A stretch of DNA of 56,403 bases from contig JAMOUS010000060.1 of assembly GCA_027067975.1 (NCBI GenBank), positions 1 to 56,403 on the forward strand, given 5' to 3'. The stretch's first letter is position 1. Each line of letters opens with the position of its first letter. The position numbers and the translations under genes are program-made. This DNA is from Bacteroidales bacterium (GTDB taxonomy: Bacteria > Bacteroidota > Bacteroidia > Bacteroidales > VadinHA17). Shown one piece after another: positions 4,418 through 43,265 of this stretch. Under the pieces are notes generated by a model. It did not search any database. It saw only the letters and a list, made by a program, of their open reading frames with translations, and had not been told where the DNA came from.

Positions 4418-5134
4418 ATGGCAAAGTCTATGGAGTTTTTTTTCATCCTTTCCCGTCCTGCGGTAAGCGGCAACATTGGCGCGGCGGCGCGGGCGCTCAA
4501 GACGATGGGGTTCCGGCACTTGCGGCTGGCAGGGGAGACGGATCCCCTCGACGACGAAGCCCGCATGCTGGCCCACGGCTCGCACGACATCCTCGAAGAG
4601 GCCGGACGTTATCCCACCGCCGCAGCAGCCGTGGAAGACCTCGACCTGGTGATCGGCACCACCGCCCGCCCGCGTAACATCCGTCAGGAATACCTTCCCG
4701 TCACGGCATTACAAGATTTTCTCAATGAAAAAGGAAAAGCCGTTCGGCGTGTCGGACTGCTCTTCGGCAACGAATCCTCCGGCCTCAGCAACGAAGAGAT
4801 CGCCCTCTGTGACATCTTGTCATACATCCCCCTGGCCACCACCTTCCCCTCGCTCAACCTGGCACAGGCGATCATGCTCTACGCCTGGGAGATGAAAAAA
4901 GCATTTTCACCGGAGAAAGAAAAAGCGATCCCTTCGCACGAAGAAAACGGCAAAGCCCTCTATCCGATCTTGAAAGAAAAGCTGCGGCAGGTACTCCCCA
5001 AGATAGGGATCCACGAGGCCCGCCCCCTGTATCACAGGATCCTGGAGCGCTCTGCCCTCGCGGGGGAGACCGACCTGCATCTGCTGCTCTCCGTCGCCGA
5101 TGCTACATGGAAAGAACTTTCCCGACAGGAGTGA
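4418..5134 (+). CDS. trmJ: SpoU/TrmH-class RNA 2'-O-methyltransferase, TrmJ-like
   Basis: 238-aa ORF. FILSRPAVSGNIGAAARALKTMGF, LLFGNESSGLSNEEI and SLNLAQAIMLYAWE are the three SPOUT motifs. The length and C-terminal extension fit TrmJ. Confidence 0.8.
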   Translation: MAKSMEFFFILSRPAVSGNIGAAARALKTMGFRHLRLAGETDPLDDEARMLAHGSHDILEEAGRYPTAAAAVEDLDLVIGTTARPRNIRQEYLPVTALQDFLNEKGKAVRRVGLLFGNESSGLSNEEIALCDILSYIPLATTFPSLNLAQAIMLYAWEMKKAFSPEKEKAIPSHEENGKALYPILKEKLRQVLPKIGIHEARPLYHRILERSALAGETDLHLLLSVADATWKELSRQE

Positions 5135-12682: not shown

Positions 12683-13504
12683 TCACTCCGGCACTTTCAC
12701 GGAGAAGCCGGCTTTCCGCACCGCCTCGAGGCTCATCTCCCAGCAACGGTCCTGCAACTGCTCGTCATAGCTGACGGCCGCCGAGCGGCGGCGTGCGCCG
12801 TTCTCGAAGTAGGCGCCCGAAACCCCTTCCAGCGAAGGGTCGGTCGAGACATATACGGTCATCTTCGACCCTTCGCGCACCGGCGCCCCCACAGGTCCCC
12901 ATGTCGATGTCAGTACCTTTGTGTTGATGACGCCCGGATGCAGGGCATTCACGGTGATCTTGCGCCTTCCTTCGAGGAGGCGGTGCAGCTTATAGGCAAA
13001 GAGGACATTGCAGAGTTTCGAACGGGAATAGGCGGCCACCGGGTCGAAGTAGTCCTCGTCGTTGAGCCGGTCGAGGTCGATCTCCGTGGCATGCACCATC
13101 GAAGAGACGTTGACGATACGGGCCGGCTCGTTCAGATGATCGAGGAGCAGCAGGGTGAGAAAAAAATGCCCCAGGTGGTTGACGGCCCAGGTGAGCTCGT
13201 AACCGTCCTCCGAAAGGCGATATTCATGCGCAATAATCCCTGCATTGTTGAGAAGGATGTCGAGCGGCGGACCCTCCTTCACGGTCTCTGCCATCCTTTC
13301 CACCTGTGCCAGTGAGGAAAAGTCGGCCGTAACGCCATAGACACTCCCGCCGGGGTGGAGGCGCTCCAGCTCCTTGACCGTGTCTTCCACACGCCGGGGG
13401 GAGCGGCCGTGCACCGTGATATCGTACCCCTGCCGTGCCAGCACACGCGCCGTCTCACGGCCGATGCCGTCGGTGGAACCCGTGATCAATATGTGTTTTG
13501 CCAT
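12683..13504 (-). CDS. Short-chain dehydrogenase/reductase (classical SDR, retinol-dehydrogenase-like)
   Basis: 273-aa ORF. ILITGSTDGIGRETA (TGxxxGxG) and NNAG are present, with a downstream YxxxK-type region (AYSRSKLCN). Confidence 0.9.
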   Translation of the reverse strand: MAKHILITGSTDGIGRETARVLARQGYDITVHGRSPRRVEDTVKELERLHPGGSVYGVTADFSSLAQVERMAETVKEGPPLDILLNNAGIIAHEYRLSEDGYELTWAVNHLGHFFLTLLLLDHLNEPARIVNVSSMVHATEIDLDRLNDEDYFDPVAAYSRSKLCNVLFAYKLHRLLEGRRKITVNALHPGVINTKVLTSTWGPVGAPVREGSKMTVYVSTDPSLEGVSGAYFENGARRRSAAVSYDEQLQDRCWEMSLEAVRKAGFSVKVPE

Positions 13505-13604
13505 GTCTCCCTATCCTTTGTCGTCCAAAATATAAAATTTTCTCCAATCGCGGATCTGTTTCGGGCACGGAGGAGCATTCAATGTGGAGCGGAGGGATAT
13601 TGGT

Positions 13605-14160
13605 CAAGTGTCTCGAGCACTTCGAGTGCCTAAAGTTGGAAATTACAAGTGCCTAAAGTCAGTGACACCCGGATTCTGCAAGGCGAAGCCGCAGCGGAAT
13701 CCGCTGGTGGAACTGACCCTGACCGGAGCCGTAGGCGAAGCGTCAGGGTTACAAGAAAGTGCTTGGAGTACTTAAAGTGCTTAAAATTGCAAGTTACAAG
13801 TGACTAAAGTCAATGACACCCGGCTTTCGCGAAGCTTTAGCTGTAGCGAAAGCCGATGGTGGAACTGACCCTGACCGGAGCCGTAGGCGAAGCGTCAGGG
13901 TTACAAGAAAGTGCCTGGAGTACTTAAAGTGCCTAAAATTGCAAGTTACAAGTGACTAAAGTCAATGACACCCGGCTTTCGCGAAGCTTTAGCTGTAGCG
14001 AAAGCCGATGGTGGAATTGACCCTGACCGGAACGAAGTGGAGCGTCAGGGTTACAAAAAAGTGCCTGGAGTGCCTAGAGTTGAAAGTTACAAGTGCCTAA
14101 AGTCAGTGACACCCGCCTCGTGCGAGGCGTAGAAGAAGCGGAATCTGCCGGTGGGCCTGA
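13605..14160 (+). repeat. Tandem array of a ~151-bp structured unit (about 3.7 copies), locus B1
   Basis: Unit starts (AGTG[AC]CTAAAGTCA[AG]TGACACCCG) are at 13648, 13799, 13951 and 14092, preceded by a partial tail from ~13605. Each unit has hairpin 1 (e.g. CGGCTTTCGC...GCGAAAGCCG), hairpin 2 (ACCCTGAC...GTCAGGGT) and a 9-mer tail. Copies 2 and 3 are nearly identical over their first ~70 nt. Confidence 0.95.
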
Positions 14161-14356
14161 CTCGATACTCCATACTCCATACTCCATACTTCACTTTTGC
14201 CTTTTGCCTTACCGGCAAAGTTCTGAGTTCAGAGTATCGAGTATCGAGTTGGCTTTTGACAATGCCTGAACCCTTTTATCTTTTTCCTTTTGTCTTTTGT
14301 CCTGGCGAAGGCGGATCGCTTCATCGCATTATCGCTTCATCGTGTCCGTCGCAGCC
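14161..14356. repeat. Mosaic intergenic repeat, locus B2 (inverted heptamer arms, CTTTTGCC/CTTTTGTC 8-mers, CGCTTCAT 8-mers)
   Basis: 14161-14189 is the reverse complement of the heptamer run at ~1735-1763. 14193-14220 is CACTTTTGCCTTTTGCCTTACCGGCAAAG, with palindrome TTGCC..GGCAA. 14231-14250 carries forward heptamers. 14263-14310 is TGCCTGAACCCTTTTATC...CCTTTTGTCTTTTGTCCTGGCGAAG. 14316-14342 is a CGCTTCAT-type run. 14221-14356 is collinear with 43079-43261. Confidence 0.9.
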
Positions 14357-14510
14357 TCTTCGATCAACATAGCTTTAGCGAAGTTGATTAGCGGAGGCGG
14401 ATTATCTTTTATCATGTTGAGCTTCCCTGAAGCATCACCATTTCGTTGGCTGTGCATAAAAAGATGATTTATAACCGTTATCTTTATGGATCCGGAAAGG
14501 AGGGTTTTGG

Positions 14511-15812
14511 ATGGACATCCTGGTATTCAGTGAACGGGTGACGCCGCGGTTGCGGTGGATATTGCGGGAGGTGTTGTGGCGGCGTCTTGGATTGACCCCG
14601 GTGCTGGTGGACGACCGGGAGGCATACCGTCACGGCCATGTGCCGGGGATCACCTATGCGCGGGAGCGTGTGGGGCGGCGGCACGAGCTGGTCGTCTGGC
14701 CGGCGGGGCTGCTGCAGGAAGAAGGGATCACGCCGGCACCGCCTCCGCAAGATCATTCCGGGAACGTTCCCGTGCTCTTCCCCGCGCCCCCCGGCTATGA
14801 CCTGCCCTTCGACCTCTTCTCGGCAGCGTTTCACCTGCTTTCCCGCTATGAAGAATACCTGCCCGGCGAGCGTGACCGCCTGGGGCGCTTCCCCGCCCGG
14901 GCTTCCCTGGCGTGGCAAGGCGGATGGCTCGACCGCCCCGTCGTGGACGAATGGGCGCTGTGGCTGCTCAAGCGAATGACCCAAAAGGTGGAAGGACTGC
15001 AATACCGCATGCCACCCCTGCGTTTCGTCCCTACCCTGGATGTCGACCAGGCCTTTGCCTACCGCCATAAACCGCTTTGGCGACTGATAGGGGGCGGACT
15101 CGTTCAGGGTGACCTGCGACGCCGCTGGCGGGTATGGACCGAAAAGGAAAAAGATCCCTACGACATCTTCCCCGAAATCTTCCGTCTTCATGAGCCTGTC
15201 GGGGAGATGCCGCTCCTCTTCTTCCACACGGGCCGGTGGGGCCGGTATGATAAAGGCATTTCACTGCGCCATGAGGCGATGCGCCGGGTGGTACAGTATT
15301 GTGCTTCCCGCACGCAACTGGGCATACACCCTTCGGTAAAGGCCGCCCGTGCCCCACGCCTCATCGCCAACGAGAAAGCCCTCCTGGAAGAGATATACGG
15401 CCGGCCGGTGATCTACAGTCGCATGCACTACCTCATGCTGCGCTTCCCTGAGATCCCCCGTGCCCTCTTGCAGGCGGGGATCCGGCAAGACTATTCGTTG
15501 GGCTATCCCGAAGCTCCGGGCTTCCGCGCCGGCACCTGTCATCCTTTTCAGTGGTACGACCTGGAGCGGGAGGAAGAGACCTCCCTGCTCCTTGTGCCCC
15601 TCACTGCCATGGATGGCGCGCTGCGCCACGGCATGCGCCTCTCCCCCGGACAGAGTGTGGAACGGTTGGAGCAGCTCCGCAAGACGATCGAACCTTACGG
15701 TGGCCTGCTCGTGACACTTTGGCACAACCATACGCTTGCCGGTGGTGGCGACTGGCAACCGTGGGCCGAAGCCTATTTGCATTGGATGTACGAACATTTT
15801 GCTTCTTCATGA
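14511..15812 (+). CDS. Polysaccharide deacetylase-family (carbohydrate esterase-like) protein
   Basis: 433-aa ORF. ...PTLDVDQAFAY..., ...GIHPSVKAA..., ...SRMHYLMLRFP... and ...GYPEAPGFRAGTCHPFQWYD... recall the Bacteroidota deacetylase-like family. Recognition is by motif memory only. Confidence 0.6.
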   Translation: MDILVFSERVTPRLRWILREVLWRRLGLTPVLVDDREAYRHGHVPGITYARERVGRRHELVVWPAGLLQEEGITPAPPPQDHSGNVPVLFPAPPGYDLPFDLFSAAFHLLSRYEEYLPGERDRLGRFPARASLAWQGGWLDRPVVDEWALWLLKRMTQKVEGLQYRMPPLRFVPTLDVDQAFAYRHKPLWRLIGGGLVQGDLRRRWRVWTEKEKDPYDIFPEIFRLHEPVGEMPLLFFHTGRWGRYDKGISLRHEAMRRVVQYCASRTQLGIHPSVKAARAPRLIANEKALLEEIYGRPVIYSRMHYLMLRFPEIPRALLQAGIRQDYSLGYPEAPGFRAGTCHPFQWYDLEREEETSLLLVPLTAMDGALRHGMRLSPGQSVERLEQLRKTIEPYGGLLVTLWHNHTLAGGGDWQPWAEAYLHWMYEHFASS

Positions 15813-16705
15813 TCCGGCATCTTCGTCACCGGCAGATCGACAAAGCCGCCTGGGACGCCGTGGTGAGGCAATCCCGGATGGAGGTGCCCTATGCCCTGTC
15901 GTGGTGGCTCGACATCCTTTCGCCGGGATGGGAAGGCATCGTGGCGGAAGAGAGGTGGGTGTTTCCCCTGCCGGTGAAACGCAAGATGGGGGTGAAGATC
16001 ATGTTACAGCCTCCTTTCATCCAGCAGCTCGGGATCTTTTCCATGGAGAAGATGCCCCCTGCCGCCGTGGCGGCCGTGGTGGCAGCACTGCCCCGCTCCA
16101 TCCTGTACGGCGACATACAACTGAACGAACTGACCCCCACAAGGGGTTGGCCGGGCCAAGTTACCCTGCGGCGCAACATCCTCCTCCACCTCGACGGCAA
16201 GGCTTCCCAACGGTACCACACCAACACACGACGCAACCTCAAAAAGTTCCTCGCGACAGGTGCGGAGATACGGGAAGAAGCGGACGGAGAGAGGGAGATG
16301 GTCCGTCTCTTCGCCAGGGAGGCACGGCAAAAGACCCCGCATCTGCGGAGAGAGCACTATGAACGCCTGCTCCGGCTGTACCAGCAGATGCGGGAACGTG
16401 GGATGCTGCGTCTGTTCGTCGCCCGCCGGAAGGAGGAGCTCATGGGGATGGCTGCCTTCATCGACTGGCGGGGACGGTGGATCTTCCACTTCTCGGCCGC
16501 CACGGCGGCAGGCCGGCAGAGCCATGTGCTCACCGGCATCCTCGACCATTTCATCCGCAGTGAGGAGGGATGTGGCAAGGTGCTCGACTTCGAAGGGGCC
16601 GAAGCGGAAGGACTGGCCCGTTTCTACCTCGGCTTTGGCGGCAGGGAAGTATGGTATCCGCACTGGACCTTCAGCCGTGTTCCCCTGCTGCCACGCCGCT
16701 CATGA
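15809..16705 (+). CDS. GNAT/FemAB-like acetyltransferase-fold protein
   Basis: Start chosen at ATG 15809 (MIRHLRHRQIDKAAWD...), which overlaps the upstream stop as ATGA. The longer ORF from 15551 would overlap the preceding gene by 260 nt. The C-terminal half (..FHFSAATAAGRQSHVL..) resembles Acetyltransf_6/FemAB-like proteins. Confidence 0.55.
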   Translation: MIRHLRHRQIDKAAWDAVVRQSRMEVPYALSWWLDILSPGWEGIVAEERWVFPLPVKRKMGVKIMLQPPFIQQLGIFSMEKMPPAAVAAVVAALPRSILYGDIQLNELTPTRGWPGQVTLRRNILLHLDGKASQRYHTNTRRNLKKFLATGAEIREEADGEREMVRLFAREARQKTPHLRREHYERLLRLYQQMRERGMLRLFVARRKEELMGMAAFIDWRGRWIFHFSAATAAGRQSHVLTGILDHFIRSEEGCGKVLDFEGAEAEGLARFYLGFGGREVWYPHWTFSRVPLLPRRS

Positions 16706-17458
16706 GGTGGCCGGACGCTTCTTGTGTCTCTTCTTCCCGGCTTTCTTCGCGGCTCTGATCCTCTCGTGAAGGTATCCTGCCAGATAGATCATGTCCCGTC
16801 CGACGGTACGGGTGTACTCGTCGTACTTCATCGCCTCGACAAAGGTATCATCCCAGATGTCGGGCCGCTCCCAGTGACAGGGGATGATGCAACAAGCTCC
16901 GTACTCGTGGTAATCGATCCCGTCGGCAGCAGGATTCACCGGGACGGCCAGAAAACCGTCATGGGGGTTGGTATGGTAATCGATCGCCTTGGCGAAGATG
17001 GTATAATCGGGATAGTTCCTGCCAAGATTGAAGAAATAGACCGGGTTCTTGGCATAACCCCGCATGGGCATAATGGTGAAGCCCTGGCGTTTGAGGGCTG
17101 CGACGATGCGGTAGTTGATGGCCTCGGGACGCAGGCCGCCTGAGAAAACACGGACATTACCCACCTTATAGTAGTTGAGTGCCGTATAGAGCCATATCTG
17201 AGCCAGCTGGGTGAGGGAACCGTCGGTGATACCGGCAAAGAGGATCTCGGCCTGTCCACGTTCGCGGATCATGTGCAAAAGAGTATCGCCGATCAGTCGA
17301 AGGGTGTCCCTGCGTGCTCCCGGGATGAGCCCCTCCTCCCCCGCCAGCCGCTGGCATTGTTCATAAAGCGCAGGATAAAAGCGCTGACCCGCAGAGCGCG
17401 GCAGAGGCACAAAGAAAAAAAACACAAGCAACAGGGCTGGGATGAAAGACCTGGACAT
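16700..17458 (-). CDS. LMW-PTP/ArsC-fold family protein with degenerate active-site loop, signal peptide and basic C-terminal tail
   Basis: 252-aa ORF with signal peptide MSRSFIPALLLVFFFFVPLPRSAGQ. ILFAGITDGSLTQLAQIWLYTALNYY...VFSGGLRPEAINYRIVAALKRQGFTI aligns by eye with the Bacteroidota protein-tyrosine-phosphatase-like family (..CTHNSRRS...SGGTE..), but lacks the Cys and Arg of the CX5R loop. Confidence 0.5.
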   Translation of the reverse strand: MSRSFIPALLLVFFFFVPLPRSAGQRFYPALYEQCQRLAGEEGLIPGARRDTLRLIGDTLLHMIRERGQAEILFAGITDGSLTQLAQIWLYTALNYYKVGNVRVFSGGLRPEAINYRIVAALKRQGFTIMPMRGYAKNPVYFFNLGRNYPDYTIFAKAIDYHTNPHDGFLAVPVNPAADGIDYHEYGACCIIPCHWERPDIWDDTFVEAMKYDEYTRTVGRDMIYLAGYLHERIRAAKKAGKKRHKKRPATS

Positions 17459-17510
17459 CGCGGCGGGAGGTTGTGGCTACGGGGTTAAAAATAAGAAAAA
17501 TTTCCTCCCT

Positions 17511-17551
17511 TAAAAAGAGAGGCCTTCTCCCCACCGGGGAAAAGGCCTCTC
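17511..17551 (-). terminator. Rho-independent terminator downstream of the peroxiredoxin gene
   Basis: A 16-bp stem, GAGAGGCCTTCTCCCC (17517-17532) with GGGGAAAAGGCCTCTC (17536-17551), has one mismatch and a 3-nt loop. It is followed on the minus strand by TTTTT (plus-strand AAAAA, 17512-17516). Confidence 0.8.
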
Positions 17552-17572
17552 CCAAAACTTTCAAATGGGATC

Positions 17573-18223
17573 CTACCGCTCTTTGTGGCAGAACCACCAA
17601 TCATAACACTCATATTCCTTGAGACGCTGTTCGGCGGTCTCGACATCCGTTGCCGGCGGGATGATCACGCGGCTGCCCATGAACTCATTGTTGGGCCAGT
17701 TGGCCGGTGTGGCCACTCCTTCGCTGTCGGATACCTGCAGCGCCTTGACAGCCCGGAGCACCTCGTCAAGGTTACGGCCGATCTCCTGGGGATAATAAAT
17801 GATCAGCCGGATCGTGCCTTCCGGATCGACCACATATACCGCACGCACGGTCGTAGAGCCTTTCCCGGGATGCAAAAGCCCCAGCTTGTTGGAGACCGTA
17901 CCCAGGTTGTCGGCAATGATCGGGAAGGGGATCTCCACATCCAGCTTCTCCTTGATCCATTCATGCCATTTGATGTGAGCGAACACCTGGTCGACCGACA
18001 GCCCCAGCAGCTCGGCATTGATCTCCTTGAACTGATCGTTCAGCTTCGCAAAGCCGACGAACTCCGTGGTACATACCGGCGTGAAATCGGCCGGATGACT
18101 GAAAAGCACCAGCCATTTGCCCTTGTAATCATCGGGAAGCCGCTTCACCCCATGGGTGGTCTGAACTTCCATCTCGGGGAATTTGTCCCCTAACAGCGGA
18201 AAAGTGTGATTTGTCTGTTCCAT
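17573..18223 (-). CDS. Peroxiredoxin (Prx6/1-Cys-type)
   Basis: 216-aa [21 protein letters not shown] contains the peroxidatic Cys motif PxxxTPVC, and the length and C-terminal domain fit the Prx6 subfamily. Confidence 0.9.
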
Positions 18224-18253
18224 TTTCGTTAAAATTTATTGGTTAATAATTAG

Positions 18254-18331
18254 TTCTGAGTTATCGAGTATCGAGTATTGAGTATTGAGTATTGAGTATC
18301 GAGTATTGAGTATCGAGTCAGTGAGTCCCGG
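18254..18331 (+). repeat. Heptamer microsatellite block, locus C (8 phased AT[CT]GAGT units plus CAGTGAGTCCCG junction)
   Basis: 18263-18318 reads ATCGAGT ATCGAGT ATTGAGT ATTGAGT ATTGAGT ATCGAGT ATTGAGT ATCGAGT. It is flanked by GTTCTGAGTT (5') and CAGTGAGTCCCG (3'), the same edges as at loci A and B2. Confidence 0.95.
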
Positions 18332-37118: not shown

Positions 37119-37680
37119 GGCGACAAGGCCAAGACAAAAGACAAAAGGATATAGATAAAAGAAGGCCCGCCTTCGTCCGGTCACCCGGACTCCGGCGGAC
37201 GAGGAAGGCAAAAGGCAACCGTTTTTAGTATCGAGTTCGGAGTATGGAGTATCGAGTATCGAGTATCGAGTTTTCGTAGTACCAGCCTATCCCACGCTCC
37301 CCTCCGCTAGTTTTCCGGCGGCATCCAAATAGGCCTGTCTACCCTTACGCCACTCATCTGGATTGCCCCAAATGTACTTTCTTACCGATTGAATATTGGA
37401 GCATTGGAATTTGTAGTTTGGAATTTATTTGGAATTTGGAATTTTCCCGAAGGGATGCCTTCGGCAGGAATTTGGAATTTTCCGAAAAGGATGCCTCCGG
37501 CAGGAATTTTCCGAAAACTCCCAACTCGATACTGGGAACTCCGAACTCGGTACTTTGCCGGTAAGGCAAAAGGGTTAAGGCAAAAGGCAAAAGTGGAGTA
37601 TCGAGTTTGGAGTATCAAGTCAATTCCACCATCGTCTTTCGCATCGCCTCCGGCTCGCGAAAGCCGGGTGTCACTGACTT
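37119..37680. repeat. Mosaic intergenic repeat, locus D (largest; modules in both orientations)
   Basis: 37121-37160: reverse CTTTTGTC/CTTTTATC module. 37167-37209: GC-rich hairpin. 37227-37271: forward heptamers. 37406-37445: GGAATTT-type run. 37436-37515: two ~37-bp repeats, the first with hairpin CCGAAGG..CCTTCGG. 37521-37551: reverse heptamers. 37552-37594: reverse CTTTTGCC module with TTGCC..GGCAA. 37595-37620: forward heptamers. 37621-37680: reverse complement of the hairpin-1 module of the 13.6-kb array. Confidence 0.9.
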
Positions 37681-37683
37681 TAT

Positions 37684-40134: not shown

Positions 40135-40150
40135 AGAAGGCCTTGGATAT

Positions 40151-40195
40151 ACCTATTTAAATATCTATTTAAACACCTATTTAAATACCTATTTT
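40151..40195. repeat. AT-rich 12-nt direct repeat x3.75 immediately upstream of mutS2
   Basis: ACCTATTTAAAT (40151-40162), ATCTATTTAAAC (40163-40174), ACCTATTTAAAT (40175-40186), ACCTATTTT (40187-40195). The block ends 16 nt from the mutS2 start codon (40134) and sits in otherwise GC-rich DNA. Confidence 0.9.
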
Positions 40196-43078: not shown

Positions 43079-43261
43079 AGTTCGGAGTTCGGAGTTCCGA
43101 GTTTGGAGTCCCGAGTATCGAGTTGGGAATTGAAAAAATTGCCTGAACCCTTTTATCTTTTGCCTTTTGTCTTTTGTCTTGGCGAAGCCTCATCGCTTCA
43201 TCACATTATCGCTTTATCGCTTCATCGCTTCATCGTGTCCACCGTAGCCGCAGGCGGAGCG
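43079..43261 (+). repeat. Mosaic intergenic repeat, locus E (heptamers, CTTTTGYC 8-mers, CGCTTCAT 8-mers)
   Basis: 43079-43127: AGTTCGG AGTTCGG AGTTCCG AGTTTGG AGTCCCG AGTATCG AGTTGGG. 43139-43184: TGCCTGAACCCTTTTATCTTTTGCCTTTTGTCTTTTGTCTTGGCGAAG, about 50 of 52 identical to 14263-14310. 43186-43233: CGCTTCAT-type run. It fills the whole gap between the convergent stops of yaaA and rnfA. Confidence 0.9.
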
Positions 43262-43265
43262 TGCT

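Follow-up and report, generated by a model that had tools for sequence, protein, structure and literature searches.

The window, a stretch of 56,403 nt that constitutes contig C60 of a metagenome-assembled genome (G000; 2.79 Mb in 311 contigs, 55.8% G+C, completeness estimate 93%), carries a foldback structure at 14.1 kb. The structure lies in an intergenic gap of 1006 nt filled by a repeat block (13505-14510), with a short-chain dehydrogenase (SDR) gene on the minus strand at its left (12683-13504) and a DUF7033 gene on the plus strand at its right (14511-15812). Read along the plus strand, the copy opens with the last, truncated copy of a ~151-nt hairpin unit (U unit, 14068-14159), which ends in GGTGGGCCTG and passes into the left arm of the foldback through the junction GGTGGGCCTG|ACTCGAT. 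The same junction is found in contigs C65, C305, C73 and C215, and in near-identical form in C229, C27 and C220, confirming that the foldback is physically joined to the 151-bp unit, as the initial annotation of this DNA had claimed. The left arm, ACTCGAT (ACTCCAT)x3 ACT (14160-14190), consists of 4.4 copies of reverse-complement AGTNNNG heptamers with a period of 7, and includes CTCGATACTCCATACTCCATACTCCATAC at 14161-14189. It is 100% complementary (31/31 nt) to the plus-strand heptamer run termed locus A (1733-1763), an exact relation that had been recognized from the outset.

Next to the left arm sits an asymmetric core, TCACTTTTGCCTT (14191-14203), with CTTTTGC heptamers on one strand only that form a predicted bulge in the stem, followed by the apical mini-hairpin TTGCC-TTACC-GGCAA (14204-14218). 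The 5-bp stem, formed by TTGCC (14204-14208) and GGCAA (14214-14218), agrees with the initial annotation, which gave the loop TTACC as its complement GGTAA; the palindromic 8-mer that it placed in the core is not there, CCGG being the sole palindrome. The right arm, AGTTCTG AGTTCAG AGTATCG AGTATCG AGT (14219-14249), was delimited by tandem-repeat and foldback pattern searches, and its forward heptamers GAGTATCGAGTATCGAGT occupy 14232-14249, slightly inside the 14231-14250 originally assigned to them. Downstream, the non-repetitive linker TGGCTTTTGACAATGCCTGAACC (module P, 14250-14272), which is kept in at least 10 copies, leads into the T-rich heptamers CTTTTATC TTTTTCC TTTTGTC TTTTGTC (module K, 14273-14302), and then into TGGCGAAGGCGG and the octamers (ATCGCTTC/ATCGCATT)n (module O, 14303-14342), of which 14315-14342 has a period of 8. 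The string is closed by the nested hairpin GTCCGTCGCAGCC...GGAGGCGGAT, with an inner hairpin ATCAAC...GTTGAT, and by the short T-rich tail TATCTTTTATC (14343-14413), with which the repeat block in fact ends, at ~14413, past the earlier limit of 14356. A GTCCGCC..GGCGGA hairpin also lies 3' of the octamers in C305, in C178 and at 43236-43262 of the window. The strings and coordinates of the initial annotation were otherwise correct to within 1 nt.

The two arms had been proposed to pair, and folding of positions 14155-14256 bears this out. As single-stranded DNA, the segment reaches -20 kcal/mol (z -6.95), and 0 of 200 shuffles fold as well. As RNA, the plus strand reaches -41.3 kcal/mol (z -8.0) and the minus strand -44.1 kcal/mol (z -9.0), neither being equalled by any of 200 shuffles.

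A BLAST search of 14100-14420 against the genome returned 182 matches, and a pattern search revealed 18 foldbacks of one architecture. Their canonical string consists of the U unit, left arm, core, right arm, linker TGGCTTTTGACAATGCCTGAACC, T-rich heptamers, TGGCGAAGGCGG, ATCGCTTC octamers and the GTCCGCC..GGCGGA hairpin. The left arm (ACTCNNN) has 2-11 units and the right arm (AGTNNNG) 2-5 units. In each copy an asymmetric core of the type CTTTTGCC lies between the inverted AGTNNNG arms, reading CCACTTTTGCCTTTTGCC or AAAAACGGTTGCCTTTTGCC with 0-3 extra TTAACCCTTTTGCC units across the 18 copies, and the mini-hairpin has the general form TGCC-N5-GGCA. All 18 foldbacks beat dinucleotide shuffles when folded as single-stranded DNA, with z-scores from -2.2 to -8.2 and a median of -5.3. 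The composite has been copied to ~18 intergenic sites, and the genome holds ~105 arrays of the AGTNNNG type (at least 3 units) and ~110 CTTTTNN arrays (at least 2 units).

The order of the modules is far from random. Canonical order and orientation were found in 94 of 183 neighbouring module pairs, compared with 23 +/- 4.5 (never more than 38) in 500 label shuffles, which argues against the random cryptic simplicity that the initial annotation had set against a discrete element. The discrete element that it postulated accordingly stands in its module order; its boundaries are not fixed, as copies stop at module borders. The ends of the BLAST matches cluster at these borders, few copies are near full length, and partial strings occur at many loci. 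One such locus is the 43.1-kb copy, a right-half string alone (heptamers, linker, T-rich heptamers, octamers and hairpin; 43079-43262, plus strand) in the convergent gap after yaaA. The collinearity of 14219-14356 with 43079-43261 noted earlier was reproduced, with 91% identity over 80 nt between 14263-14342 and 43140-43219, and 85% over 127 nt between 14219-14342 and 43093-43219. Where copies share more than 200 nt, their identity is 74-90%, and no two full-length copies are nearly identical. In four copies, a ~90-nt non-repetitive module, GAGCGGCGTATGGGAAGAGAGGCCTATTTGGATC...GCTACGAAAAC, replaces the U unit 5' of the foldback (C96:2483-2580, C120:10019-10120, C173:2270-2366 and C10:~4700-4807), and is itself preceded by 36-nt GGAATTT..CCGAAGGGATGCCTTCGGCA units like those at 37431-37509 of the window.

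Comparison with other assemblies bears on whether the structure arose by chance, as cryptic simplicity, or through misassembly of a fragmented metagenome bin; the 311 contigs, many of them terminating in repeats, give some ground for this. Only two other assemblies carry the 14.1-kb locus, and both break in or near repeats. Over window positions 14068-18312, an ENA contig differs by five mismatches, with no gaps and with all heptamer counts equal, and it is identical throughout 14068-14510; a Logan contig is identical from 14306 on, where it covers the octamers and closing hairpin only. The heptamer arrays at 14.1 kb are the same in the assemblies compared. On its upstream side, from 14068, the ENA contig runs on into the sequence of contig C167 of G000 (18068-18123) and not into the U-unit array (window 14013-14068); the array may vary structurally, or the assembly may be chimeric. 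This differing join is the second point in favour of an artefact. On the other side, the two independent assemblies repeat parts of the element base for base (14068-14510 and beyond; 14306 onward), the non-repetitive linkers are conserved among copies, and the module grammar exceeds that of the shuffles by far, so that we consider an origin by chance or misassembly highly improbable. At the 43.1-kb locus, the ENA contig shows one SNP in 3.2 kb and lacks exactly one 8-nt octamer unit, TTATCGCT (window 43204-43211), a whole-unit change between near-identical assemblies that would fit replication slippage, with assembler behaviour as an alternative. A scan of metagenomes for close strains yielded only a relative of 62% identity.

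The foldback is confined to the G000 species. Among 121 genomes of the family, the pattern was found in G000 only, with 0 control matches. Its building blocks are more widespread: modules of 27-37 nt, 89-100% identical, occur in 16 of 24 same-family genomes, and no such module was found in the other families of the order, represented by 16 genomes. The 37-nt right-arm string is 89-94% identical in species G001, G006 and G008; G010 and G023, the latter from another genus, match module K at 100% over 29 nt. Identities of 92-100% over modules of 29-37 nt are seen in species with only ~64% protein identity. The probe AGTATCGAGTATCGAGT, two and a half AGTATCG units, has 41 matches in G000, 43 in G006, 27 in G001, 10 in G008 and 1 in G002, and none in the other six species of the genus or in 110 genomes of other genera. 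The heptamers of G006 and G001 form long direct polar strings of AGTTCAN, AGTATCG, AGTTGNG and octamers, in this order, with no inverted arm or core, from which the G000 foldback looks like a head-to-head junction of two strings that was later copied. G001 and G006 are closely related species. After mutS2, G006 carries a ~105-nt degenerate string of 7-8-mers (GAAGAGTC, GAGTARG, AGAGCRT) that is absent from G001; it replaces ~13 nt of G001 right after the stop codon, and its edges show no duplication. In the closest relative, G005, two large neighbouring proteins are 85% and 89% identical in amino acid sequence to those of G000, the orthologous borders are compact, repeat-free gaps, and AGTATCG-type heptamer arrays are absent, though present in G006, G001 and G008.

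Beyond the family, the 20-mer CACTTTTGCCTTTTGCCTTA was found on 53 contigs of a species-level genome collection, a raw count that may include low-complexity background, from Acidobacteriota, Ignavibacteria, Bacteroidota, Nodularia and others. On ~15 of these contigs, mostly from Pyrinomonadaceae and Blastocatellia, CACTTTTGCCTTTTGCCTTA forms the 3' arm of a hairpin whose 5' arm is a complementary heptamer run. These hairpins, (AAGGCAA)n ... (TTGCCTT)n, often stand directly 3' of stop codons. Overall, heptamer hairpins of the CTTTTGC type are found repeatedly in Acidobacteriota, Ignavibacteria, cyanobacteria and Bacteroidota, and direct CTTTTGC arrays were also seen in contigs of Ignavibacteria, Chitinophagaceae and Bacteroidales. 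The heptamer TAACTGA is likewise common to several phyla (MacGregor 2015, PMC4679880), and, according to the summary of Mrazek et al. 2007 given in PMC4679880, the long simple repeats of prokaryotes most often have heptanucleotide units. Given this sharing across phyla and the commonness of heptanucleotide repeats, foldbacks with microsatellite arms are not unusual, contrary to what the initial annotation had assumed; several phyla have this layout, built from other heptamers.

Synteny with the relatives revealed that two inverted composites bracket a 23-kb inversion. An inverted twin of the foldback, identified through inverted repeats and synteny, lies on the minus strand at 37538-37613, at the other end of the inversion, and the inverted arms 14200-14252 and 37521-37573 are 89% complementary. 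G005 has the genes for MutS2 and the DUF7033 protein side by side in the same direction, a few bases apart. In G008, only a gap of 226 nt, which holds one small octamer array and no other repeat, separates the end of a 1036-aa gene from the start of the dehydrogenase (SDR) gene. The order in G000 is dehydrogenase, repeat block 13505-14510 and DUF7033 at one end, and 1036-aa gene, repeat block 37119-37683 and MutS2 at the other, exactly the product expected from the adjacencies of G005 and G008 when a segment of ~23 kb between the two blocks is inverted. The data fit equally a causal role of the repeats in the inversion and their later settlement at its breakpoints.

How the copies came about was approached through the hallmarks of mobile elements. 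The layout had been called MITE-like; similar to MITEs, the element is short, non-coding and multi-copy with inverted ends and foldback potential, but it lacks their target-site duplication, fixed termini and related autonomous IS. The 12-nt flanks of the 18 foldbacks show no target-site duplication and turned out to be conserved modules (..GGGCCTG and TGGCTTTTGACA), and none was seen, by inspection only, at the outer block edges of C305, C178 and the 43.1-kb copy. Homology among copies stops at differing module borders, and the arm lengths are unmatched, for instance 11 versus 4 or 7 versus 2 heptamers. An IS481-like element does lie within the linker module of one copy (C120:8540-9880, minus strand). 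It encodes a 411-aa ORF with HTH_29 and rve_3, has a visibly lower G+C content, and is flanked on both sides by CCTGAAC, an apparent 7-bp target duplication. Its own inverted ends, TGTAAAAGT...ACTTTTACA, are unrelated to those of the foldback, and together with its insertion inside a copy they rule it out as the parent; it is a later guest. By this comparison of ends, no parent IS was found in G000, the assembly being 93% complete. With conserved repeats as flanks, ragged ends, unequal arms, no target duplication and no parent IS, the MITE-like reading is not supported.

A related possibility is a REPIN- or MITE-like mobile hairpin, in which the foldback or its TGCC-N5-GGCA tip would be recognized as single-stranded DNA by a transposase acting in trans and copied into intergenic sites. 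The distribution is in keeping with it: 18 copies in G000 and none in the 120 other family genomes, empty orthologous sites in G005, and a patchy heptamer family within the genus. In addition, the inverted doublets carry a mini-hairpin whose TGCC/GGCA stem shows 3 changes in 144 nt across the 18 copies, whereas the loop shows 13 in 90; the Fisher p of 0.0007 is overstated, as the copies are related and not independent. This contrast between conserved stem and variable loop is one feature that does point to constraint. However, the arms themselves are microsatellites of variable length, compared to the fixed-length palindrome of REP/REPIN, and left arms pair equally well with any right arm (-32.2 kcal/mol for cognate and -31.3 kcal/mol for non-cognate duplexes; permutation p 0.14), so there is no copy-specific compensation, that is, no covariation of the arms. 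The ragged ends and the missing duplications weigh against mobility of this kind too, as does the 74-90% likeness of the copies over more than 200 nt. Profiles PF01797 (Y1), PF01548 (IS110) and PF00078 (reverse transcriptase) had 0 matches in G000 (93% complete), and PF01609 (DDE_Tnp_1) had a single match, on contig C283; a Y1 gene flanked by repeats, the arrangement of RAYTs, is not seen in this genome. A mobilising gene may have escaped an assembly that is 93% complete and broken at repeats. Y1 genes are present in 7 of the 10 other species of the genus and do not correlate with the heptamers, and that of G006 is flanked by GC-rich REPs of another kind; the sole IS beside a copy interrupts the element and has unrelated ends. 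We therefore regard a mobile hairpin as possible but unlikely. The G006 locus (C165:330-1180) encodes a 151-aa Y1 transposase with GC-rich palindromes on both sides (GCCCTGAAAGGGC, CCGGGCATCGCCCGG, GCCCCGAAGGGGC), a classic RAYT/REP arrangement that is unrelated to the heptamers.

The genomic context raises the alternative that the element acts in cis, either as a bidirectional hairpin at transcript ends (a terminator or mRNA stabiliser) or as an array of 7-nt sites for a cold-shock-domain or nucleoid protein. Of the 1150 intergenic gaps of at least 30 nt delimited by a rough ORF caller, 113 contain dispersed repeats, which are enriched in convergent gaps (40/214) relative to divergent (21/295) and co-directional ones (52/641). 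The strong RNA folds on both strands, the conservation of modules across species, and the K-type heptamer hairpins right after stop codons in Acidobacteriota contigs would suit such a role. T-rich heptamers are preferred ligands of CspB. Binding of S1, Csp or CsrA has been proposed for TAACTGA heptamers (MacGregor 2015, PMC4679880), which may be counted on the same side. Yet the orientation of the foldbacks relative to neighbouring genes is mixed, and scans for sigma-70 promoters and intrinsic terminators gave no excess over shuffles. Rfam returned no match at the gathering score in the window and no credible one at E<=1 at four repeat-bearing loci. The same genes lack the element in G005, compensatory changes are missing, and an IS resides within one copy. 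A functional cis element thus appears unlikely. Within the linker, TTGACA..TATCTT has a spacer of 15 nt, and one base departs from the Bacteroidota -7 motif TAnnTTTG; a promoter role of the linker was considered and abandoned because the orientation of the foldbacks to the genes is mixed. AT-rich 12-nt repeats, ACCTATTTAAAT, partly palindromic as ACCTATTTAAATAGGTAT, were observed beside heptamer strings in three species (window 40149-40194, G001 and G006) and could be a conserved protein-binding or promoter element.

Compared to known repeat families, the element combines features of several. BOX of Streptococcus pneumoniae is organized as boxA-(boxB)n-boxC, with an internal repeat of ~45 nt. 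The present element resembles it in being modular and non-autonomous, with a variable number of internal repeats, a predicted stable structure and no known transposase, but its internal repeats are 7-8 nt long, and it belongs to a different phylum and bears no sequence relation to BOX. Similar to BIME/REP and REPINs (Bertels & Rainey 2011, PMC3116915), it is extragenic and dispersed, and is built from few motifs in fixed order and alternating orientation; its inverted doublets fold, stem and loop differ in conservation, and the copies are sites of rearrangement. The likeness to BIMEs (limited motifs, fixed order and orientation, extragenic position) is one of organization only, with no homology to the E. 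coli BIME. Unlike BIME/REPIN, which have one palindromic unit of 20-40 nt, its arms are heptamer microsatellites of variable length, its copy number is low (~18 foldbacks), and no RAYT gene was found in G000, while the Y1 genes of the genus carry other REPs. Tandem 7-nt units at many intergenic loci also place it among the heptanucleotide LSSR and the cyanobacterial STRR, with which it shares the occurrence of one unit at tens of intergenic loci, a patchy phylogenetic distribution and, apparently, unit-wise changes in length. It departs from them in that its arrays belong to a larger composite that has unique linkers and is copied; within it, array pairs are inverted around a core and several array types follow in fixed succession. 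The cyanobacterial STRR heptamer repeats were reportedly described by Mazel et al. in 1990. G-rich heptamer repeats have been described as well (Rehm et al. 2015, PMC4692102).

Altogether, we favour, at a probability of roughly 0.55, the reading that the 14.1-kb stretch belongs, as one copy, to a BIME/BOX/STRR-like mosaic repeat that is lineage-specific and non-autonomous, selfish or neutral, and that owes its growth to slippage and its spread to recombination. We propose that recombination or gene conversion seeded in the common microsatellite arrays would be the main means by which the copies spread and are reshuffled, and that replication slippage would lengthen the arrays. Recombination within arrays would explain both the ragged ends at module borders and the absence of target duplications. 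The foldback potential would then be a by-product of head-to-head arrays and not of copy-by-copy selection, and any effects would be generic ones, for example through cruciforms or transcript hairpins. The DNA itself would be selfish or neutral filler whose main consequence is genome rearrangement. Three observations count against a purely neutral version of this mosaic-repeat reading: the much stronger conservation of the stem than of the loop, the near-identical modules across species of ~64% identity, and the patchiness of the heptamers. They hint at sequence-specific recognition or horizontal spread over purely neutral drift. Along these lines, the heptamers and the foldback might be the substrate of an unrecognised sequence-specific machinery, either a single-strand hairpin transposase or nickase unrelated to RAYT, or a protein whose footprint spans 7 nt. 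By moving across species and phyla, this machinery would explain the identical modules at ~64% protein identity, their absence from G005 and the CTTTTGC-type hairpins of several phyla; we hold this to be quite unlikely.

What the initial annotation observed is confirmed, and its interpretation is partly supported: the ordered, discrete repeat module is real, and it was probably spread by recombination and lengthened by slippage. The composite form is specific to the G000 species, heptamer-repeat mosaics being already known as a kind, and the 14.1-kb copy alone adds an instance and no new principle. The element shows microsatellite arrays packaged into a copied composite, which fragments assemblies and swells intergenic gaps from ~10-200 nt to 0.5-1 kb. 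It also supplies inverted homology for the 23-kb inversion, with which its association is demonstrated. Heptamer repeats have long been noted in some bacterial genomes and have stayed unexplained. A pair of species with and without them at the same sites offers a concrete handle on the problem, and the conserved mini-hairpin is likewise a handle for finding what makes or moves the heptamer repeats.
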